A stretch of DNA of 64,000 bases from Lophium mytilinum (Eukaryota), in the NCBI GenBank assembly GCA_010093605.1, contig MU004201.1:62001-126000 (forward strand). The letters run 5' to 3'. This document shows positions 427 to 20,812 of this stretch, piece after piece. Position 1 is the stretch's first letter; each line of letters begins with the position of its first letter. The position numbers were made by a program, and so were the translations under genes. The notes under the pieces were generated by a model. That model saw only the letters and a program-made list of their open reading frames with translations. It searched no databases and was not told the origin of the DNA.

Positions 427-1118
427 ATGGCCACTGATTTCGACAAATATAAAGATTTTAACCCTTACTGGAAAGAATTTGAAAAGGTATTATATGGTTA
501 TACAGAGCAAGTGATAACTACTATTGAAGAAAAAAACATTGAGTGCCAAGAGCTATATAATAAAGAACGCCCACATCAAAGTAGACAAGATCAGGAACAT
601 CCACCTTTATGTAAGATATAGAAGCATACTTATAACTACTCTAAGAATTAAAAGCTTAAAGATTATAGCCCTAAAAGAGAAGCATATAGAAGTAAAAATA
701 TAGAAATAAGTAGATAGAAGATAAGATATTTAAGAAGAAGAATTAGGGTTAAGCTTAAGTTTAAAAGAAATCTATACTAACTTTATAAAAGATAGGCCTA
801 TCTCTAAACCTTATTCTACAGAACATAGCAAAGATGAAATCAATACTGAATTAGTAGGTAATTTAGAAGAGCAATTAGATACTGGAAACCTTACTACTAC
901 TGAAAAGGGTAAGAATATTATTTATTATAATATAGTAATACTAATATTTAATAGAGGATATTGTAAAATTAAACGAAAAAGGTTATAAAATCCGTTGCCA
1001 ATGTCAAAAAGGAGGCTGTCAAAAAATGCAGAAAAACTGTTCCTGTCTTAAAGCTAGCCAGAAGTGTGGTGAAGACTGCAATTGTAACCTTAACTGTAAA
1101 AATAAATCTGAAGCATAA
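427..1118 (+). CDS. Predicted 154-aa spliced protein with a C-terminal CXC/CRC (tesmin/TSO1-like) cysteine cluster
   Basis: Exons 427-610, 792-908 and 955-1118 join in frame without stops. Both introns start GTAAGA and have branch-like sites (TACTAAC, CTAAT) before AG. Last exon encodes CQCQKGGCQKMQKNCSCLKASQKCGEDCNCNLNCKN. Confidence 0.6.
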
Positions 1119-4100
1119 AGTATGTTTAAAAATACCTATACTTTATTAGTATATATATACTAATATATCCCAAAGAGCTAAAGTGTAATAAATACTATAC
1201 TTTCTTTCTATAAAACTACTTATAAAGGAATATACTATTATAATTATAGTTAGGTATTACAAATAGAGTTCTTCTAAAGGATCAAATAGAAATAATTATT
1301 CATTTCAGCTCTATAGAGTAATAGTAGTAAGCTATATTACATTTTTAAATATAAAAGCAGTAAGATAATAGTTTTTAATATTTTTCTATATTTTTTCTTT
1401 AATTCTATATCCTTTTTTTGCTAGACATTAGCTTACTAAACTAAATTGTTTTATATATTTTGTATATCAAACATACACCTACTACTAGCTTTTTATATAT
1501 TAGTAGTACTTAGTTAGTATAAATATAGTAGATAGTAGAAATTAAATGTCTATGTTTTTAAACGTATAGTATAAAAGAAAAAAAGAATGTAAATATAGTT
1601 TATAAAATTAGTCTACTATACCTAAAGTAAACGTGCTAGCATATATACGTATATATAAAAATAAATTATAGAGTATATACTTCTTCTAGGAAAACTTAGA
1701 AAGAGTGAAAGTAAAAGATATAAATAACTATATAGTTTAAAATAGCTACTTTAAGTAGTATAGTAACTATATAATATATAGAGAAATATCCTCTACTAGC
1801 TAACTGAAAGATAGAAGAGCTGTATAGAACGCTTTACAAGTAAAGTATTTATATTTAAAAAGAATTAGAAAAAGCTCTTTTATAGCAAGTTAACTATAAC
1901 TTATAGTAAACTATAAAATAAAGAAGAATAGAAAAATAAAAGACGTTAGAAAGCAATAACAAATAGAAGGCTTTTCTTTATCATATCCATACTTTTTTAG
2001 ACAGAACAATAGCTAAATAGAAGAGCTATTCTAGAGGGTAAAAAAGTCGTGAAAAGTATTTATTAATAGGATAGAGCTATTAGGGCTTAAGGTTAGAACG
2101 TGAAATTAGAATTAAATTAATATTAACAAAAGATAAATACAAGAAGAGAAGAAGTTTCTAGGGCTAACGTTGTAATAGATCTAAGGTTAGAGCAATATTT
2201 ACCTATTCGGCAGAGCCTCTAGTATATAAATATAATATACTACAAACGTATAGCTATAACAAAAATAGGTTATACATACATCTAAATCTAAAAGCTAAGA
2301 AAATAGAATAATAAGGAATAAAGAAGGCTAAAAGCCCTATTATATTTAATTTTAGCTCATTCTAGTATATTATGTTTTTATTTATTTTAGTTTTATTTTG
2401 ATTTTAGTATAAAAGCTACTTATAAATATGAAAGCTATAGTATATACTACTATTATCTCCTAAGCTACTAGTATAAATATACAACAGTCTAGTCTTAAAA
2501 AATACTCTTAAAGTATAGCGTTTATCTATTAATCTTTATAGGGTTATTTATAAATTTTAATATTAGTCTATATAAATAATAGCTACATTCTACTCTCTAT
2601 AAAGATGCGTGGCTTACGCACTCTTATATAAGCAGGATGTTCTATAACTGCTATTAGCATGTATACTCTAGCTAAACTATAACCTAAAAGCTAGTTCTGC
2701 TCTACCTTCTTATAGTTACTTTTCACTTATAGATAATAGTTTTTTTTATACAACACCCCTTTAGTTCCGTAATACAAGCCTTATAAAACCTAGTAATTTA
2801 TAGACTAGTATTTTCGAAACTAGTTAGTTAGTATTTTTAAAAGTAATATTAGTAAGGAAGGACTTATAGCGTGCAGAAATTTATAAACTAAATATATAAT
2901 AGTAAAGTTAGTCTTAAAAGTTATACTATAGAAATAAGAAAGCAAATAATAAGTAACTTTATATATATAGTAGTATTATGTAATTTTCTAGACTAACTAT
3001 AAAGTAGTTTACTACTATTAAATTAAGTTACTACTATTTAAATAATACTATATAAAAAGTAATCTTAGTTCTTTCTAAGAACTAAGTAAAATAGGTTTAT
3101 AATAGTTCTTCTAAATAATTAAATAAAACTCTTATAAAATTATTAACTTATTAAAGGTTTTTACGAAATTCAAAGTTTTATTTTATTAAATTTAGATTTA
3201 TTATTTCTAGTAATTAAATTAAAACATAAAAGATTATACTATAATTTATGTCTAAAATCTATAAGATTTTACAATATAATAGTATATAAAGATTTATTTA
3301 GCTTTCGTAGGAGTTATCTTTATTATTTAGAAGTTTATAAATATACAAAATATCCTCTAGTACCTTTTTTATAGTAGACACTAAAATCTTATACTGTATC
3401 TATACTTAACTTATTACCCTAATTTAAAGATGGATAAAATCAGACAATCAGAATTTTTTTTAATAAACGCACCAGTTCGAATAGCCTCTATATACTATAA
3501 TATTAGAAAACAAACAGCATTTCTTATAGAAAAAAGAGACCAAAGAAATCCAAATTGTAATATCATAGATGATACTAATAAATGTATAGTTAGTAATTTA
3601 GAAAGCCAGATAAATGTAAATAGCTATAAAAGTAGGCATAATATTAGAATTAAGAAATATGCTATTGTAGAACTAATCTATTTATAGATATAGAAGCAAA
3701 AGACTATTTAGAATTGTGTGAAATATGTCTAGCACCTTGTTTTGCTATAGAGTTACTTTAAGGAAGTGTTATATAGGATATTAATACTTAAGCTTTCTTA
3801 ACTTAAAAGATCTAAGTAAATTTTATCTTTATTTTATACTAACACTATACTTTTAGAATCGACTTTAAAAATTTTGTTAAATAAAAATAATAGTAGATAT
3901 AGTTAGCAGTATATAGATTCTTTTTAAATCTTTTTTATAGGAGTAAAACTTAGAGAGATAAATAAAGCTTATATAGATAATTGTAGGAACTAATTAAGTA
4001 TTAGAGTTGTTAATCTAGATTTAAAAAAGCCCTAAGTAGTATATTAAGTTCTTTACCCACTCAATAGTATTTTATTAAAGGCGTATTGCAATATAAAATC

Positions 4101-6202
4101 TATTAGTTTTTCTCTACCAAGTACTATTTAGGCTTAACTATTGTCTTTTATTATATTTTGAATATGTAGGCTATAGTATATACTGAACTAATAATATACT
4201 TATACTATCAGTATTAAATATAATAGGTTTAGGTACGATAGGTTTAGGCATAAGATATTATATTTCGGTTTAGCGTCTAAATATTAAAGAAAGTATATAT
4301 ATATAGTTCTATTTTCTAGATATTAACTTTATGGCTCAATAATTCATATAGGGTCTATAATCTTATTTAGATAGTAGCATTCCTATTAAGTGCTTGTATA
4401 CTTAGCCTTTTATATCTAAGCCTAAATAAAATTCTCTTAAATATCTGTACTACGGTTAGTTATAGAAGTTATAATAATATTACTAACCTATATTTTCATG
4501 TTCTTTCTACTATATAGATCTCTATTTCTACTATTAGCTAGTCTACCTAGCTAGTGTCTATTGGAAAGAGATTTATTCTTGTAGGTAATTTATCTATACT
4601 ATTTACTTAGATGTATAGATAGTTAATATATCTAGTTATTTTATATAATTGTAGTTAAATAATTACTTTCTAACTTTTTAATAAAAATGTTTTATATAGC
4701 TCTATATAAAAATAGAAAACCATAGATATTATTAAAACTTTTTAACTATTTCTAGACTTTAAAGAGATATATACTTTCAATTTATTAAATTTAATTAATT
4801 GCAACAGTACATAGATTAGAAACATAGAAGAAAAGCCTTATATAATAGACCTAAAATTAAGACTATCTTCTATACTAAGAGAGTAATAGTCTATTAATCT
4901 ACTATAAGGTACTATAATACACTAATAAATAGTAACATTAAATTTAAAACTCGACCCCTATTATTGTACAGGCGTTTTTTTCTATCTTATTTAAACTGCA
5001 AGGCTTAGCTAAGAGTAAGAATTACGTTTATTACTAGTGCAGCGGCGTTATGCCGTAGCTGGAGGTTGTTTTTAGAAATGTCTCCCTTAACACCGCTAGA
5101 ATAGTAGAGTTGTTATAAGTCTTAGAGGCCTACTACTACTTGACTCTATACCTATAGATAATAAGAAAATAAATAGAGGATCATTATCTATAACTATCTA
5201 ATATTCTATTACTTACGATACTAGGCTAAGGCTATACCTAGTACCTATACTTGCTAGTAAAGTAGAGGCCTTTATTCTAATACAGTAATAGGACACCTCT
5301 ATACTAGCTATATTAGACGCCCTTATATCTATAGCCTAATAATACTATAACTAGAAAGACTAGGAGAGTAGGAGCAAAGATAGTAGCGAATTAGTTAGTA
5401 GATATTAAGGGGCAGTAGCTATATAGTATAAAGGCTGCTATAATAACCTCTATCTATAAGATATATTTAACCTATTATTTTAAAAATAATAATATAGGTA
5501 ACGCAAATGGGGCTGCTAGTGCCTAGGCTAGCGGCTGTAGGGCGTAGTATATAATACTAGCAATAGTTGGCCTTAGGCTTTACGCCTAGTTAACTTATAG
5601 AAGATAGTAGGTAGCTACTTATAGTAAGTATACATGCATACTTTCTATTTAGCCACTTATGCACGGCTAAATAAGCTATAGCTTATATAGTACCTCTATA
5701 CGCTAAGGCTAATATAGAGTATATAGTAGTCTTTTTATTTAATAGTAAGTATGCGGCTTTAGCCTTGCTATAATAGCGAGTATATAGTTTTAGCTTTACT
5801 ATCTAATAGTAAGTATACAACGCAGTCTTACTATTCTAGCTAGCTAGAGTCTATTATGTAGGGGGGAAGATTAATACCTTACCGGTAATACTATTTATAT
5901 AGCCTAAAAGGATAGATATCTATATTAGTTTATTAAGATGTAGGGGTAAGCTGCAAGATACGCTTAAGGAGTAGATTAGGTGTATGTAGATAGTAGACGG
6001 ATTTAGGCCCGACTACTACAGAAGCACTCTATTTAAAAATCTATAGTAAGGAAGCTAGGTAGGTAGCTTTATTTATAACTTACTATATATTTAGCTAGCT
6101 AGATATATATACTTAAATAATAAACTTTCTAGATAGATCTAGAATAACGCGTCTTAATAGCTTATTTTATACTATTATAGACCTACTATATATCCCCTAT
6201 AA

Positions 6203-6421
6203 AAAGGAACACTAAAATCGAAATTCGACCCGTATTGTCGTACGGGGGTTCCTTTCCATCTCGTTTAAACCGCAAGGCTTACACGAGAGTAAGAATCACG
6301 TTCATTACTGGTGCAGCGGCGTTGCGTCGTGGCTAGAGGTCGTCTTTGAAGACGTCGTCCTCAACGCCGCCAGAATGGCAGAGTTTTCACGGGTCTTGGC
6401 GGCCTGCTACTACCAAAACTC
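6203..6421 (+). ncRNA. Structured 5' leader RNA with multiple stems, a GNRA loop and a 3' pseudoknot; IRES-like candidate
   Basis: Complementary pairs AAAGGAAC/GTTCCTTT, CCCGTA/TACGGG, TCTCGT/ACGAGA enclosing CC-GCAA-GG, AGTAA/TTACT, GCGGCGTTG/CAACGCCGC, CGTCTT/AAGACG; TGGCAG/CTGCTA crossed by GAGTTTT/AAAACTC. Confidence 0.6.
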
Positions 6422-7317
6422 GACATCCATAGATAGAAATTTGAACAGTAGAACTTTCTTAAGAACCACCCGACCTGTTACTATCTAGAAGCTTACCGTC
6501 CTAGACTATAAGCCGGCGCCTGCATTTACTAGTGGGAGTGGAAGGCCTGGCAATAGGATAGGACACTACTATACTTATTCTATTCTAAGATTATGCTTAT
6601 AGCGAGGATAGGGAGAATCCTAGCACCATTAACTATATTGGACGACGTTAATCCTTATTACATTAATATCGACTCGGCCGCGGCGACGTTAATCCGGAAC
6701 TTAGAGAGCTAGGAACGGACTTGGGAGCAGGGGGAGGACGTATTGACGCAGTGCTGGAACGGACGAAGATGCAGGTAGTGGCTAAGGGAGGACAACAAGT
6801 TTAGTTAGTAGACGGGAGGCATGGCAGCCGCACGGCGTTAGGTTGCCATTAGGACAACAGCTGGCTACTAGGCACGCTGTTGGGCCAATACCTCCATCTA
6901 TAAGACACGGTCGGCCTGTCATTATAAGAATGATACAGGTAACGCAAAACAGCTGCTGGGACCGAAAGAGCTGCGGGGCGTGGTATATAATGGCAACAAC
7001 AGATGGCTCTAAGAACCTCACCTCTTTACTAGGCTCTGACTCTTGGTGGACCTGCAGCGGAGGAAGAATTAAACCCTTGCCAACAATACTGTCTATGTAG
7101 CCCGAAAGGACGGATGCGCGTATTAGTCTATTAAGAGGCAGAGGCTAGCTGCGAGATAGGCTTATAGAGCAAATTAGATGCACACGGAATAGGGGTACGC
7201 GTTTAGTAAGCTATGCCCGTGGTAGGGAGTCCTGGCAGGAGGGCTACGCCTAACTCTACTTTATATGTAACTCTCGTAGCTCTGCAATGTAAATGTATTC
7301 TAGACCTGGCAGCCTAA

Positions 7318-10300
7318 CTACTCGAGCTAGAAAACTGGAACAACCCCCTGGACGACGAAGAAGAAGAAGAAGACCTAGATGACTTTGTACGCATTCTCCA
7401 CTAACTTATTAAAATTACTATTGACGCCATAGTGCTAATAGCACGGCCCTTACAACACGCATTACTATCCTAGACTAAGGAGTGCTTGGAGGAGGTGCAT
7501 AAGACTAGGCGAGCGTATAGAACGTGGCGCTCATTACGCTCTATAGAGGACTAGATCTTATACTAAGTCTAATGCAACCGCAAGAAAAGAGCTATATAGA
7601 AAGAGAGTACTAAGGCATAGCGCCGCACGGTGGAGAAGGTAACGAACAACCCTAAAGGGGCATGGAAACTGGCCAAATGGGGCCGCACGGTTAGAAAGGA
7701 ATCAAGGCCCCCTTCTTAATTTCCCCCCCTCTCTCGGCCAGGTGACCCCACCCTGTATGCAGACAACGAGACGAAAGCACGCATACTTGCTGAACAGTTC
7801 TTTCCACCACCGGTGGAAGCTAACCTATCTAACCTAGAAGGGTTCTAATACCCGGAACCGCACACCACCTCTATAGAAGTTACCGCAGAAGACGTACTCT
7901 TGGCACTAATAGGAATCGCGCCGGATAAGGCCCCTAGAATTACAGGAATTACAAATAGATTTCTAAAGAAGTGCGAGATGCAACTAGCACTAGTGCTTGC
8001 CCGCTTCTTTATAAAGTGCCTATATAGAGGACACCACCCCCGCCCGTTTAAAGAATTAATTACGGTAGTTCTACGCAAACCCCAGAAAGCGTCCTATATA
8101 ATAGCGAAGGCCTACAGGCCTATTGCGCTGCTAGAAATAATAGGCAAGCTATTTAAACGCATTGTGGCCAAGAGGCTCTCTAAGATAGCAGAGGAAAAGG
8201 GCATGCTACCGCCTAGCTAAATGGGGGCACGGCCGGAATACTCTACATAGACAGCACTCGAACTCCTTACGGAACAGATCTATGCTGTATAGAAAGAAAA
8301 CCCACGGCTTGTAGCATTACTCCTTAGCTTAGATATATCGGGCGCGTTTAATCGAGTATTATATAAATGAATAATACACAACCTACAGGTCTAGAGAGTG
8401 CTAGAATGGATAATAAGGTTTACTAGGTCCTTCCTCCAGGACCGCACTACTAGACTGTCTATAGGAAACTACATAGCAGAACTAATTATAGTTACTATAA
8501 GCATTCTGCAGGGCTCTTCCCTATTGCCCATCCTCTTTCTCTTCTTCGCCAGCATACTACTGCCAACCCTTTAGGACGGCAACACAACGGTATATAGGTT
8601 TGTAGACGACATAAACATCCTTACATATAGTAGAACCACGGAGGCGAACTGCAGGGCTATTAAGAGGGCCTATAATAGGTGCATGGACTAGGCAAGGAAA
8701 CACAGCGTTATATTTAGGCTGGATAAATACCACCTAATATACTTTATAAGAGCCCGCATAGAAATTAACCTAAAGGCCACGGTTAATATATAGGGCTTTA
8801 AGGAAGGCCCTATTAAAGACCTATAAGTACTGGAAGTACAAGTAGACTCTAAGTTGAAGTGGGGCCCGCATATAAGCATAATAAAGAACAAAGCCATAAC
8901 CTAGATAGGGGCGCTTACTAGGCTCACGGCATCTACCTGGGGCGCGAGCTTTAGGAAGGCACGCCTAATATACTTAGTAGTGATTCGGCCTGCCATTATG
9001 TATAGATGCACTACCTGGTATACCGCACTAGGCATGCCGGAGCAGCTTAGCAAGATAAAGGTTAAGCAGCTTAAAACGGCCTAAAACCACTATCTCTAAA
9101 AGATCTTGGGGGCATACAAGACTATAAATACTAAGGTACTAGAGCACGAGACGTCGTGCCCTCCACTCCCGTTAAAACTGGAGGAACTTATGGTGGCTTA
9201 CGCGGACTGCACGCGCAAGGGGCTAGCACGCAAGCATATTGAAACAGCATGCAGCAATATATAAAGGGAAATCCACACTAACCATAAGCCGCTTACGAGG
9301 CTAAAGTACAGTCCTAGCCGGCGAGATATACTCCGCAACCTCGCAGTAAAGGCCATAAAGTCGTGCACTAGGTCTAAAGAGGAATTAGAGGACGCCCACA
9401 AGCGCTTAAGGCGATTCGCTATTAAGTGCGAATACGAAGAGAGGTGGGAGAAGAAGTGGGAGTCCTTCCGCAAATCAGAGCAGCGAGGACTACTAACGCC
9501 GGCCCTTAACACTAAATGGAGCAAACGATAAGAAACTATATATAAAGGGCTTATAAAGGTCGAGAGCACTATTCTTATAAACCGACGGACGGAGCACATA
9601 GGCCTTAACGGGTACCTGCACCGCATAAGAGTGCCCGGCCACCTAACACTAGCCTGCCCCTGCGGGCACGGCCTCCAATCGCCCCGGCACATAGTAATGA
9701 GCTGTAAGAGGCACGTAGAGGGCAGAGGTAAACTATTTAAGGAAGTAAAGACCCGGATGTACAAGAAAATATACAACAGTAAAAAAGGACCCAAGGCGAT
9801 AGCCCGCTGGTTTCTATAGAAAACGGACCTACTACCCTACCTCTTAATGGCTAGAGAGATGGAAACGGAAAGGCTGTAGGCTTAGCCTTCCCACTTCTAA
9901 TAGCCTTGCCATCTCTAACAGCCTTGCTATTTCCAACAGCCTTGCCATTTCCAACAGCCTTGCCGTTTCTAACAGTCTCGCCACTTCCAACAGCCTTGCC
10001 ATCTTTAACAGCCTTGCTATTTCTAACAGCCTACCTATAAGCCGCATACTACCTAAATAGTGTATACTCTAAATACTCTATACACCCTATATACTGCCGT
10101 CTATCTACCGCCCTCAGCCTACCTCTATTAGCCAGGCCACGACTCTCAGCCGCGCTATGGCCCTTAGCTATGCCACGGCCCCTAGCTATGCCATAAAAGC
10201 TTATACCTGCCATGCGCAGCTATAGACTCCCTATAGTATACTAGAGCTGCCCCTCTAGCTATACTCTCTATTACATACTTCCCATTCTATATAGCCCTCC

Positions 10301-10787
10301 TATTTCTTAGCAGCCTCTCCACTTTATAATAGCTGCCCGTAGAGCTGCATACTACCTAAACGCTGTATACTCCGCTATAGAGCCGCCCTTTAGCCCTTCT
10401 ATATCCGCCAGCCATGCTATAGAAGATTACACCTGCTACTAGCGGCGGTATACTTCCTACAGTATACTACAGGTTATATACTCTACTGTATACTGCCACC
10501 GCATACCTCCCGTGCCTATAAGGAACGGAACGGAATAACATCGCCACCTAATAAGCAGCTGTCCAACAGGCCTTATACTACCACACGCTGCGCAGCCTTC
10601 CTATTCTATTTTAGCCCTCCTATCCCCTTTACCTACAGGGCTTCCTATACTTAATTCCCTTCTTTAAACCCGCCTTTAAGGCAGGACACGCGTGCGCCCG
10701 TACTGCGCGCGTGCCCTCACGCTAATCCTCCACCAGCAAACCGCCCCGGATTCTAATTAACCCGACCTGAACCTAGGAGGACGACTA
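7318..10787 (+). mobile_element. 5'-truncated Tad1/CgT1-like LINE: RT plus C-terminal CCHC, endonuclease and ORF1 absent
   Basis: RT motifs YRPIALL (~8115), SLDISGAF (~8330), QGS..PILF (~8510) and FVDD (~8600); zinc knuckle CPCG..QSPRHIVMSC (~9655-9705); probable TSD CAGCCTAA (7310-7317) / CAACCTAA (10788-10795). Confidence 0.88.
9893..10032. repeat. 18-bp minisatellite, about 8 copies (AACAGCCTTGCCATTTCC), in the LINE 3' region
   Basis: Direct tandem repeats; they generate the MARLLE-repeat ORF 9844-10047(-). Confidence 0.9.
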
Positions 10788-12601
10788 CAACCTAATCCGG
10801 ATTGATCTCGGAAGACGCATCACGATGGCTTATTCCGTGGCAGGCCTGATAGACCTACTACGCGTCCCTAACAGCTAAATAATACTATAAGAGAGGGCGC
10901 TTAGCTTAATGCACTATAGAAGACAAGGTTTTCATCTAATAGCTACTTGGTAGCAAATGGTTTTCTTCTTGTAACTAGCCTAGATAGAATAGCTGCATGG
11001 ACCCTAACGGGAGCTACACCAGCTTAATAGAATTTAATAATAATAATAAAATAATATCCCCTTTAGTAAAACGCAATATAGAAGGGTACTTAGCGCCGTA
11101 TAAAATAGAGGACAAAGTTTTTACCCGAATGCTCCCCGGCAGTAAGAAGTTTTCCATTGCAAATTAGCCTAGATAGAACAGCTGCATAGACCTTAATAGG
11201 AGCTACACTTGCGTAATACGATTTAATAAAATAAAATTGCAAATAAAATACTTATATAAAAAATCATTAGAGATATATCTAGGGGAATAATAGCTGTATA
11301 TCTTTTAATCTTTCTATATATCTTGTTTCTTCTTTAGACCTTTCTATTCTACTCTTTTTTATCTAGTTTTCTTATTAGCCTAAAGCATTACTCTAAGGTC
11401 TTTAAAATACTTATTTAGGTTATTTATTATTTTTAAATGCCCTTTTAAAATGCAGTATTGCTATTAAATATTATATCCTTACTATATATCTTCCTAATAC
11501 GCTTACTATAGACCTTTAGCCGCTACTATAAACCTTAGCCTTTAGGCTGAAAAGTCTAGTATCTATAAATTTAATAAATAGCTATGCAATATTAGAAGAT
11601 CTAAGTCCTACTGCTATAGTTAACTAAAGATCCTCAAACTCTTATACTGAATGGATATCCTAGTACACAGTAAGTCTTTTAAAATTCAATTTGAAAAGAA
11701 GATATAGTATAGTCTACTTAGTATAGTAATTAGTTATCCTACCTACTTATATCTATACCTAATAGATAAATGACTTTCTCTATGCCTTATCTATAATACT
11801 AAAGATATTTTAAAAAAAGAAGCTTCTTTCCTAGGTGTTTTCATTATTATCTAATCTTGTAATAGCTCTTTTCTTTACACATTTTATAATAGATAGAAGT
11901 AGAAAGTGTCACTTTCTCTACTTAGTCTATAGGTCTCTTCTGCGCTAAAACTTAAGTTATATTCATTACAGAATATAATGATCTTTTATTAAGATTGGGA
12001 TTTTTTCTTAGCTAACTGTAGCACTAAGTTGTTTTTCTCTTAAACTAAAATACGTCTAGCTTCTTCTTTTTATCTATTCTGCTAAAAGTAATACTTCCTT
12101 TGTTTTTTATTATTTCTAAAATAGTATATTATTAAGTTCCATAGCGCTTGAATGTTATAATTATTAAAAGCAAATTAACTTTAATATATAGAAGAGAAAA
12201 TAGTACGTAATATCTTTAATTTACTCTCTAGCTATTATAGCAGGATGAAATTTAATACAATTAAGCTGTAGTATATAAAAGATGCTAGAATTTTAATATT
12301 TTAGTTTGAGTTATGGGGATAGTATCTATTAAAACAGTAGTAATCCCATAGCTAAGTACCAGGAATGTAATTCTACTCTAAATAACTCCTTAATTATTAA
12401 GGATTTCTAAATAAAATCTATAAGAAGGGATTAAAAAAGTATAATTCTTTCTAATAGCCTTATTGCATTATTATTAAATTCTAATACTAAAACTAGATTG
12501 CTAAAGAAATATAACCTACTATATCTAAGCTAAGCAAGTCTAGTGAATTATATAGAGAGGCTAGTAAATTTTCTTAGACTAGATAGATTTTTAGTTTACT
12601 A

Positions 12602-19651: not shown

Positions 19652-20812
19652 ATGCATCATGTAGATCAGTTTATAAGAGTAGATGAACTTAATAAAAACA
19701 TTGGAAATAGAGTTATTAATCTTGCTATTACATGTTTAGTTATTCAGTCTATTTTCTTTATTCTATTTTACATTGCAAGACACCTTAGTAAGACTCTTAA
19801 AGCATGGGAGTGTTGGATTTTTATACCATTAGCATATTTATGCTGTACTACTTTATGTATATGTGAAATTTGTAAGTTTTTCTATATATATTCTTTATTA
19901 TATTTACTAAATCTAATAATCTTAAAGTAGCTGTTAAGATTGGTGGCGAAGGACAACATATTACAGTTTTAAATACAGATACTATTACAACCCGGATTAA
20001 GATTAATATAATTGCAGAATATATTGATATTACAGCTATTACTAGTACTAAACTTGCTATTCTAATTCTATACTACCGAATCTTTTCAGTATGGCCTAAA
20101 TTTCAGATTGCAATTTATTTTACTACTTTAATAGTACTAGGGACTTGGATAGGAGCACTAGTGCTTAGTATAGTAAAATGCCACCCATTTAGTAGTCAGT
20201 GGGACCACACTATTAAAGGCGGGCAATGTGGGGATTCTATAAGAGCATACCAGTTTCTTTTTATCCCTAATATCATTACAGATTGTATAATGTTAGTAAT
20301 ACTTTGTTATGCAGTCTATAAACTACAAGTCCAGTTACCAACTAAGATTAGTATTCTTACTACACTTTTAACGGGATCTATGTAAGCTTTTATCTTCTTA
20401 TTTGTAAGTAAAGGTACTAATAGTTTATATTAGTGGAATTATTACTTCAGTCCTCCGAATGCTATCTTTTCTTAATAATACCTCTTTACTTAATGACTTT
20501 ACCTATAATTCGGTTTCTTTAACTTTATTTACTATTATAGAAGCTAGTACCTACTTTATAGCTGCCTGTATGCTAAGTCTTCGCCCCTTTAAACGGTATA
20601 TATTTAAAGGGAAAAGCTTTACTAAATGGCTAGGGACTTATATAGGTAGAATTTGTGGAAGTTGGTTACAAAGCTCAGTATCTTTTAGCGGACTAAGATT
20701 AAGTAGTATATTAAGAACTACAGTAAACCAAAATAACTCTCTACAAGTAGATTGGAGCCATTTTGGTGAGAATTGGATGCAAATACTAGAAGAAGGTATT
20801 AGAGCAGACTAG
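19652..20812 (+). CDS. PTH11-like (fungal rhodopsin-domain) multi-pass membrane protein without CFEM, 349 aa, 3 exons
   Basis: Exons 19652-19871, 19931-20381 and 20434-20812 splice GT-AG in frame with no stops. Family motifs G.G.H, TKLAILILYYRIF, C.P....WD....G.C, NIITD, KLQ....K, TIIE.....IAAC..SLRP. Confidence 0.85.

Follow-up and report, generated by a model that had tools for sequence, protein, structure and literature searches.

The MINE elements of Magnaporthe grisea/oryzae, on which Fudal et al. 2005 is reportedly a further reference, are the closest described counterparts of the repeats analysed here. According to the accessible text of Gogvadze et al. (2007; PMC2104539), their 5' part, WEIRD, is a non-coding sequence of 1113 nt that is always full length and precedes MGL LINE pieces 230-5461 nt long, with repeats of 10-20 bp on either side of each chimera; no solo 5' part occurs in the genome, and in the LINE template the junctions are preceded by a GCC motif (GCC, then A/T). 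The same text treats mammalian bipartite chimeric retrogenes, such as U6-L1, for which template switching is the accepted mechanism, and canonical SINEs with LINE tails, such as Mg-SINE.

In the 64-kb stretch of DNA analysed here (the window), two nested repeats are probably bipartite chimeric retroelements of the MINE type, in which a non-coding head of ~1.1 kb is joined to a 5'-truncated LINE. An earlier reading of the DNA from its letters alone (the sequence-only reading) had mentioned a passing likeness to the WEIRD part of the MINE chimeras, which proves to be the best description of the element. As in MINE (PMC2104539, accessible text), the 5' part is full length, non-coding and of similar size (1119, 1202 and 1089 nt here), the join to the truncated LINE is direct and in the same orientation (with ~255 nt to >3.7 kb of LINE here), the whole unit is bracketed by a target-site duplication (TSD; here in the inner copy and in a metagenome contig, L008), and the head is not of the tRNA, 5S or 7SL type. 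The window TSD, however, is of 9 bp rather than 10-20 bp (that of L008 is of 18 bp), and the present head occurs in several organisms, whereas that text reports a WEIRD-like sequence from no other genome. When three published 20-nt WEIRD/MINE primers (PMC3978060) were compared with the heads, these primers alone representing the Magnaporthe sequence, they matched no better than shuffled primers, and homology of the head to WEIRD, set beside it by the three primers and the published description, is unsupported.

With the U6-L1 chimeras the repeats share a full-length 5' RNA, a variably truncated LINE 3' part and TSDs, but the RNA at the 5' side of U6-L1 is a known small nuclear RNA, for which a solo gene exists (PMC2104539, accessible text), whereas here it is a 1.1-kb RNA without an Rfam match. 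With canonical SINEs they share non-autonomy, the 3' end of a partner LINE as the recognition module and TSDs; here, in contrast, there is no Pol III-type head, the shortest form is 1.4 kb and the LINE-derived part varies among copies, while in SINEs it is fixed (PMC2104539, accessible text). An assignment to the SINEs was rejected on the head, in which ARAGORN found no tRNA gene and Rfam gave no match, although the 3' end is shared with a LINE.

Layout of the nested elements

The features of the locus, in window coordinates, are as follows.

4925..6126, + strand: outer head module, predicted non-coding, 1202 nt, heavily RIP-mutated (nhmmer head profile, E 7e-269, this copy being in the training set; alignments)
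5470-5585, + strand: internal duplicate block of the outer head
5739-5819, + strand: 31-bp tandem repeat in the outer head
6127..6198, + strand: start of the outer LINE-derived part (counterpart of inner ~10799-10870), ending in the 9-nt target site (6190-6198) that the inner insertion duplicated
6199..7317, + strand: inner head module, predicted non-coding, 1119 nt (homology to L008 1728-2807)
6206-6425, ~6940-7005 and 7059-7190, + strand: conserved parts of the inner head (the leader, a TATATAA-containing block and a further block, respectively)
7318..9873, + strand: inner LINE ORF2, 5'-truncated, without endonuclease (single frame, 24 RIP-type stops)
~8083-8742, + strand: RVT_1 domain of the inner LINE ORF2 (Pfam, E 4.9e-18)
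9874..10943, + strand: inner LINE 3' UTR, with internal duplications
9884-10032, + strand: 18-bp tandem repeat in the inner LINE 3' UTR
10944..11053, + strand: inner conserved LINE 3' terminal hairpin, then (TAA)n tail (alignment, consensus hairpin, tail profile E 1.7e-27)
11054..11062, + strand: second copy of ATATCCCCT, the 9-bp TSD of the inner element
11063..11237, + strand: outer LINE-derived 3' remainder, hairpin and A/T-rich tail (tail profile E 2.5e-22)
21787..~22110, - strand: third copy, limited to a LINE 3' end and corresponding to inner ~10719-11053 (tail profile E 5.7e-23)

Sequence comparison within the window places the inner element (6199-11053) inside the outer copy (4925-6198 and 11063-11237), and the 9-bp duplication ATATCCCCT, which brackets the inner element at 6190-6198 and 11054-11062, occurs exactly twice in the 64 kb. 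The nesting and this TSD had both been noted in the sequence-only reading and stand, as does the common 5' terminus of the two copies (76% match of outer 4925-5139 with inner 6199-6413, E 2e-40). A 73% match joins outer 5862-5982 to inner 7059-7180, the middle of the head is homologous and diverged between the copies (transition-tolerant local score 406 versus 244 +/- 15 for shuffles, z 10.5), and the hairpin and (TAA)n tail ascribed to both copies are confirmed by a 74% match of outer 11105-11234 with inner 10916-11046, the (TAA)n run itself lying at 11035-11056. Around the outer copy no TSD was recovered, the sole candidate being 10 nt that agree in purine/pyrimidine pattern at 4904 and 11243, and no head module was detected upstream of the third copy.

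The head module

The head was found in the window organism, in sequencing-run contigs of two other organisms and in four metagenome contigs, and the four copies that reach the 5' end all start identically with ...AAGGAACAC. The inner head matches L008 1728-2807 at 65% over 1005 nt (E 3e-52) and at 81% over 88 nt. The leader (~215 nt) and the 3' blocks are conserved, while the LINE 3' UTR drifts, as does the middle of the head, which evolves fast and with large indels; in L024 the leader alone aligns with the head. The leader had been described as folded, which holds for the consensus of four sequences (pairing kept in 94.6% of cells and both partners changed in 13 pairs, a level reached by 5 of 500 shuffles) but not for the single sequence, the fold of which is unexceptional (z -1.06). 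No Rfam match at E<=1 was obtained in the window region, L008, L024 or L078, and with no tRNA gene found by ARAGORN an origin from tRNA, 5S or 7SL RNA, or a Pol III-type head, is unsupported.

An ORF of ~350 codons had been ascribed to the element, but the three + frames of the inner head contain 22, 26 and 14 stops and nowhere stay open for more than 104 codons. The inner RT frame, by comparison, has 24 stops against 62-75 in the other two frames. In L078, nt 1-1095, upstream of the RT part, carry 12-19 stops in each + frame, and their last ~270 nt, the only part to do so, align with the end of the head, whereas the RT frame adjoining the head has one stop in 352 codons. The indels between heads (5, 10, 13, 17, 29 and 38 nt) are not multiples of three, and no Pfam match was found for the head. 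From the stops in all frames, these indels and the absence of a protein family match, the head module is evidently non-coding, and the description of the element as protein-coding is given up. The peptide pair that had been offered as evidence of an ORF, IRIDLGRRITMAY, maps to 10798-10836, in the LINE 3' UTR ~925 nt past the end of ORF2. A protein-coding or virus-derived retro-satellite was likewise rejected as a classification: no ORF is conserved, and a scan of viral contigs with one leader 19-mer returned four matches, all limited to the seed, so that the suggested RNA-virus or satellite origin finds no support. The head may still contain a small ORF: the antisense frame 6785-7144 matches five unnamed short ORFs with a conserved core of ~60 aa. 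In close pairs of heads, one codon phase carries somewhat more changes than the other two (10/11/20, 12/10/17 and 11/13/19), a bias that is absent from the comparisons with L078.

The LINE-derived part and its junctions with the head

The LINE from which the 3' portions derive is a fungal APE-type element with a CCHC ORF1, probably of the Tad1-like group. The inner element retains 3.7 kb of it, comprising ORF2 from just past the endonuclease, the whole 3' UTR, the hairpin and (TAA)n, while the outer copy retains only ~255 terminal nt. The inner ORF2 (best match 5e-198) is 43% identical to EN+RT proteins of ~1100 aa, of which it starts at about residue 257, its residue 19 aligning with residue 275 of P0004. 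These 3' portions belong to ordinary fungal APE-type LINEs, with 3' UTR tandem repeats, also present in the 3' UTRs of L006 and L008, and a terminal hairpin followed by a microsatellite tail; the difference is that ORF1 and EN are missing from the window copies, where a foreign non-coding head takes their place. An autonomous APE-type LINE was rejected as a description of the window copies: RT is present (RVT_1), but tblastn found no EN across the whole window, and the ORF1 profile gave no match in the heads of the window or of L008 (E>2).

Comparison of the 3' end with resident LINE tails, as the sequence-only reading had proposed, settles the ownership of the hairpin, which it had assigned to the element itself. 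In a profile search of 80 loci, the tail follows RT in eight (L004, L006, L007, L008, L014, L020, L024 and L046; E<1e-22) and, more weakly, occurs in four more. L006 is a full-length relative with ORF1 (E 2e-49), EN, RT and the tail, and no head was found in it. Because the tail stands downstream of RT in these eight loci, the headless L006 included, the terminal hairpin and tail are, on these alignments, the 3' end of the resident LINE.

The RT had been regarded as a separate insert between 7317/7318 and 10795/10796. The left edge is real, and the LINE reading frame begins there. The right edge is not a boundary: the third copy aligns through the equivalent of inner 10795/10796 (z 3.8, above all 200 shuffles), and a 2176-nt contig from another organism spans inner 10763-10874. 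The same arrangement recurs in L008, where the head (1728-2807) abuts an endonuclease-less RT (2806/2812-5226) followed by the LINE tail (5796-5908), the whole head-RT-tail unit being bracketed by an exact 18-bp duplication at 1707-1724 and 5899-5916; the reading of the RT as a separate insert is given up.

In all five copies in which the 3' end of the head is visible, it is LINE sequence that comes next; the sixth, L024, aligns over the leader. The five junctions fall at five different LINE positions, while the end of the head is constant. Entry into the LINE is at residue ~257 of ORF2 in the inner copy, ~41 residues later in L008 and at residue ~241 of P0001 in L078; in the outer copy it is within the 3' UTR, leaving the ~255 terminal nt. 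In L070, where, as in L078, the 3' part of the head is fused to the LINE at another point, entry is within the C-terminus of ORF1, and the junction can be located to no better than ~250 nt. The junction of the outer copy (~6122-6127) is blurred by RIP, and a permissive alignment can shift it to inner 10728; outer 6011-6126 matches the end of the head at a z of only 2.6.

Discussion

The fixed 5' end, the LINE-type tail and the TSDs support the view, already present in the sequence-only reading, that the element is a non-autonomous unit mobilised by a LINE. The constant end of the head and the variable LINE junctions are best explained by template switching of the reverse transcriptase, a mechanism that we infer from the anatomy of the elements and the steps of which are modelled on those given in the accessible text of Gogvadze et al. 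(2007; PMC2104539). The LINE machinery would nick the target and prime on the 3' tail of the LINE RNA, reverse transcription would proceed toward the 5' end of that RNA, and at a variable point the enzyme would switch onto the 3' terminus of the head RNA, copying it through to its 5' end, after which the chimera would integrate and create the TSD. Transcription from the head may later allow chimeras that keep the LINE tail to be mobilised again in trans. The inner chimera inserted into the tail region that the outer one owes to the LINE, after which both were degraded by RIP.

It is very improbable that the locus is instead a protein-coding SINE-like element of ~1.4 kb with its own tail, the inner copy of which was later hit by an unrelated 5'-truncated LINE (7318-10795), as the sequence-only reading had proposed. 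The outer copy is indeed a contiguous unit of ~1.4 kb without RT and the LINE frame does begin at 7318, but the supposed insert shows neither its own tail nor its own TSD at 10795, where the third copy and the foreign contig continue, and this model is further opposed by the head-RT adjacency inside one TSD-bracketed unit of L008, by the tail behind RT in eight LINE loci and by the lack of an ORF. The sequence-only reading had also allowed that its family might be an ordinary LINE ORF1 with simple internal deletions; the head is not ORF1 and simple internal deletions are not seen, but RT and tail do belong to one LINE. A related account, in which one LINE subfamily natively carries the head as its 5' UTR and all forms derive by internal deletion from a head-ORF1-ORF2 element, is unlikely, even though head and LINE are always found together in the same orientation, the window and L008 diverge to a similar degree in heads (65%) and RT segments (63.5%, nucleotide), and the head blocks of L070 precede an element that still has EN and RT. 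The five junctions share one left edge, the end of the head, and have five right edges, and therefore independent deletions are not expected to have produced them. In none of the loci examined is a head followed by a complete ORF1, the remnant in L070 covering profile positions 408-484 of 518; the full-length L006 has the same tail and no head; and among the 18 listed loci nine have EN, of which only L070 shows a head match.

A possible, though not a likely, reading makes the head an ordinary, abundant non-coding RNA gene of the cell, comparable to U6 in the human L1 chimeras, and the chimeras dead by-products rather than a transposable family. This is the interpretation given for WEIRD in the accessible text of PMC2104539, and the conserved blocks and leader structure across several genomes are in keeping with it, as is the lack of an A-run between head and LINE, which fits a non-polyadenylated RNA; on the other side stand the missing Rfam matches in the window, L008, L024 and L078, the chimeric state of all five heads with a visible 3' end and the fast-evolving, indel-rich middle of the head. 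The cellular-RNA reading and the MINE-type reading differ only on the further propagation of the chimeras, and the mechanism of formation is compatible with both.

Within the preferred MINE-type reading, it may be proposed, tentatively, that the head, rather than being a stray cellular RNA, represents a conserved line of non-coding 5' hitch-hikers whose divergence has paralleled that of a single fungal LINE clade in several genera, and that, having no 3' recognition signal of its own, it would spread only through jumps of the reverse transcriptase and would supply a promoter-bearing leader to dead 5'-truncated LINEs. If so, WEIRD would be one member of a widespread class rather than a single-species curiosity. 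In the literature found by full-text search, MINE/WEIRD elements are confined to Magnaporthe (the rice blast fungus), and a head comparable in size and behaviour is now seen in a RIP-affected fungus, in contigs of two other organisms and in four metagenome contigs. It thereby becomes testable whether heads are RNAs of the cell onto which reverse transcriptases tend to jump or parasites specialised on LINEs, and what it is about their 3' end that makes reverse transcriptases prefer them as acceptors. In annotation, pieces of head and RT in RIP isochores call for caution, as they are single insertion units and not nested events.

Nested copies in a RIP-degraded isochore

The window is set in a RIP-degraded fungal repeat isochore, in which the GC content falls locally to 0.21–0.25 and TAA/TAG-type stop codons occur throughout. 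The following copies are referred to below.

6199–11053: inner copy
4925–6198, resuming at 11063: outer copy, surrounding the inner element
21787 to about 22110, minus strand: third copy of the tail

In the 64 kb there are just two occurrences of ATATCCCCT, at 6190–6198 and 11054–11062, bracketing the inner element at 6199–11053; the nesting of the inner copy in the outer copy with a 9-bp duplication, as described in the sequence-only reading, therefore stands. The two copies also share their 5′ and 3′ parts as that reading had stated, with 76% identity over the first ~215 nt (E 2e-40) and 74% over the last ~130 nt, and at the 3′ terminus of both there is a hairpin with an A/T-rich microsatellite behind it, (TAA)n in the inner copy. 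In the ~1.1-kb 5′ module, which is referred to here as the head and the first ~215 nt of which form the leader, the identity between outer 5862–5982 and inner 7059–7180 is 73%, and the middle parts are homologous but much diverged, with many gaps and transversions (z 10.5 versus dinucleotide shuffles in a transition-tolerant alignment). Much of this poor alignment is owing to two features of the outer head: a second, internal copy of the GGTAACGC...TATATAA block at 5470–5585 and a 31-bp tandem repeat at 5739–5819. As a whole, the original observation is largely real and was confirmed in part; the following results change the assignment of several of its components.

The RT segment and the tail

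The region 7318–9842 is a single reading frame interrupted by 24 stops (TAA, TAG or TGA), versus 62–75 in the other two frames, and matches RVT_1 in Pfam (E 4.9e-18). The RT segment is 43% identical to fungal LINE ORF2 proteins of ~1100 aa containing an APE endonuclease and RT (241 matches, best 5e-198), and in alignment with a 1109-aa homologue its residue 19 corresponds to residue 275, so that the LINE piece begins directly after the endonuclease; no endonuclease was found anywhere in the window by tblastn with three full ORF2 queries. Of the two edges between which the RT had been taken to be inserted, the left one at 7317/7318 is real, as the LINE frame begins there, whereas the right one at 10795/10796 is not, as the alignment of the third copy to the inner element begins at ~10719 and passes this point without interruption. 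The third-copy stretch upstream of it scores z 3.8, above all 200 shuffles, and 10763–10874 is bridged by a 2176-nt contig from the run of another coded organism. Neither the lack of a 7317>10796 joint among the 15 matches listed of 38 nor the lack of cover over 9822–10677 in the DNA run of organism B was used as evidence.

A profile of the ~110-nt tail matches downstream of the RT in eight of the 80 metagenome loci fetched by ORF2 alignment (L004, L006, L007, L008, L014, L020, L024 and L046; E < 1e-22), with weak matches in four more. The hairpin and microsatellite tail, previously assigned to the element itself, is therefore the 3′ end of the LINE, and 7318–11053 is one 5′-truncated LINE with a complete 3′ UTR. 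This 3′ UTR contains a tandem repeat of an 18-bp unit at 9884–10032, and short tandem repeats are also present in the 3′ UTRs of L006 (~8500–8900) and L008 (~5330–5400); the repeats of this LINE clade are different from locus to locus, whereas its terminal hairpin is conserved. The hairpin loop is CCCTAA in most copies (window 10944–11053 and other tails), the complement of the telomere unit TTAGGG, which may be a coincidence.

Heads fused to LINEs in other loci

The inner head (6204–7306) is homologous to L008 1728–2807, with 65% identity over 1005 nt (E 3e-52) and 81% over 88 nt. The L008 head lies directly upstream of an RT match (2806/2812 onwards) without an endonuclease, the LINE part starting ~41 residues downstream of the window's entry point, and the element closes with the LINE tail at 5796–5908. 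The whole unit is surrounded by an 18-bp exact direct repeat (1707–1724 and 5899–5916), so that head, RT and tail recur together within one duplication-flanked unit and the RT can no longer be regarded as a separate insert. In L078, a copy free of RIP degradation with one stop in 352 codons of the RT frame, the last ~270 nt of the head (nhmmer E 8.6e-17) run into the LINE at approximately residue 241 of protein P0001. In L070, the conserved 3′ blocks of the head (72% identity over 204 nt with L078, E 9e-21) give way within ~250 nt to an ORF1 reduced to its C-terminal part (profile positions 408–484 of 518), after which EN and RT follow, the head/LINE junction being only roughly placed. In the outer window copy, only the terminal ~255 nt of the LINE 3′ UTR follow the head. 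In L024 the leader alone aligns and the similarity ends beyond it; L024 6665–7252 has no similarity to L078 1–1100. A covariance model of the leader, searched against the window and the 80 loci, detected no additional copies.

LINE sequence thus lies 3′ of the head in all five copies with a visible head 3′ end, and the five junctions fall at five different LINE positions, with the head 3′ end constant to ~10 nt. The 5′ end is present in four copies, and all of them begin with ...AAGGAACAC. One further locus, L001, a 4.3-kb metagenome contig, has an intact, endonuclease-less RT ORF of 894 codons (1109–3793) directly downstream of a 320-codon open frame (98–1060) that by eye looks like a DDE transposase. 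Because its RT without EN follows this transposase-like ORF and not a head, L001 was excluded from the count of chimeras; it may result from insertion of a 5′-truncated LINE into a DNA transposon or represent a different type of chimera.

Coding capacity and structure of the head

The sequence-only reading had proposed an ORF of ~350 codons in the head. The inner head contains 22, 26 and 14 stops in the plus-strand frames and has no Pfam match in any frame, and the indels between heads are of 5, 10, 13, 17, 29 and 38 nt, not multiples of three, which argues against such an ORF. In L078, nucleotides 1–1095 upstream of the RT part, of which only the last ~270 nt align with the head, contain 12–19 stops per plus-strand frame. 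The peptide pair cited for the ORF is no support for it, as 10798–10836 lies in the LINE 3′ UTR, outside any ORF. The alternative of an ordinary LINE, named in the same reading, holds for the RT and tail, which form one LINE, but not for the identity of the head with ORF1: an ORF1 profile derived from four full-length relatives, which detects the RIP-degraded ORF1 of L006 at E 2e-49, gave E > 2 on the heads of the window and of L008 in every frame. An EN remnant in the head was likewise rejected, as none was found by tblastn.

An antisense frame of 120 codons (6785–7144, minus strand) matches five short unnamed ORFs, P0122–P0126, which share a conserved core of ~60 aa (65–79% identical) with unrelated termini; the two that were scanned, P0122 and P0124, have no Pfam match. 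A 104-codon sense frame has three matches in 1.84 billion representatives. Differences by codon phase in close head pairs (10/11/20, 12/10/17 and 11/13/19) show a mild excess at one phase, which disappears against L078 (18/18/20 and similar). These short-ORF matches and the phase excess are read as reflections of a conserved nucleotide block; the head is not detectably coding, a small ORF being possible.

Of the folded leader that had been described, the single-sequence fold did not hold, as the fold of the inner leader is unexceptional against shuffles (z −1.06), but a consensus structure of four leaders did, with 51 pairs, 94.6% of cells paired and 13 pairs changed on both sides; its score, obtained on the same four sequences from which the structure was derived, was reached by five of 500 shuffles, and slid controls gave 1–4 pairs. 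RIP by itself yields G:C to A:U changes, which weakens the pair-change signal; the cleanest change is a transversion-type swap from A:U to U:A at columns 68/81. The conserved block 7059–7215 has a weak consensus fold (−10.3 kcal/mol, 18 pairs). The earlier statement that a Pol III-type head is lacking was borne out: no tRNA-like head or Rfam family was found in the head, with nothing in Rfam at E ≤ 1 over window 4800–11400 and, in L078, L008 and L024, a sole miRNA match that lies within the RT and is attributed to chance (E 0.75). Viral contigs scanned with the leader motif gave seed-length matches only and thus no support for the suggested RNA-virus or satellite origin. A TATATAA-like box inside the head (6985–6992), ~70 nt upstream of its most conserved block (7059–7190), is kept in the inner copy, L008 (TATACAA) and L078 and could be an internal promoter.

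Origin of the chimeras and comparison with MINE

The copies have a bipartite build with fixed head ends, variable LINE entry points, target-site duplications flanking the unit and a tail owned by the LINE. We infer that each chimera arose by a jump of the LINE RT to the head RNA: after copying part of the LINE RNA from its 3′ end, the RT would continue on the head RNA from that RNA's own 3′ end, with later re-mobilization of the chimeras as a possible further step. The main rival explanation, in which the head is the native 5′ UTR of the LINE and the observed forms are internal deletions, is disfavoured by the constant left edge at the junctions, where the head ends, and by the fact that no copy with a head and a complete ORF1 was found; L006, a RIP-degraded full-length LINE with ORF1, EN, RT and the same tail, has no head. 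The head itself may be either an RNA of cellular origin or a dedicated hitch-hiker.

According to the report on Magnaporthe grisea MINE (PMC2104539), WEIRD is a non-coding RNA of 1113 nt at full length, always on the 5′ side and directly fused to 5′-truncated MGL LINE pieces of 230–5461 nt, and the chimeras are flanked by 10–20-bp direct repeats; no solo copy of WEIRD and nothing similar in other genomes are reported there, and the authors explain the origin of MINE by RT template switching. The anatomy of MINE described there matches that of the window chimeras feature for feature, so the likeness to WEIRD noted at the outset holds. It is a likeness of anatomy; the three published WEIRD/MINE primers that were compared with the heads (PMC3978060) match no better than shuffled primers, and homology to WEIRD is so far unsupported. 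The literature found treats WEIRD/MINE in Magnaporthe only. The nested repeats are probably chimeric LINE retroelements of the MINE type, a new member that RIP has killed; the reading as an unknown protein-coding SINE with a viral origin has no support.

Distribution, possible expression and other features

The head is also present in runs labelled with two further organisms, B and C: contigs of organism B cover it over 6227–7297 in five pieces with 5–18% differences, and three 151-nt contigs from the organism C run fall on it. Together with L008, L024, L078 and L070, they place the head family in several genomes, evidence that non-coding heads of this type are conserved beyond one species.

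In run X5, the kind of which (RNA) is guessed, the summed depth, given per contig, is 2295 at the leader bin 6184–6397 and 14835 at the conserved-block bin 7040–7253, with RT bins at ≤28; in the DNA run that carries the same organism label, head and RT bins are of comparable depth. High expression of parts of the head is a lead from these depths and not evidence.

Elsewhere in the window, two adjacent open frames at 19876–20812 (plus strand) match Fung_rhodopsin in Pfam (E 9e-27 and 3e-08), and represent a gene for a membrane protein, or the remnant of one, within the AT-rich repeats.
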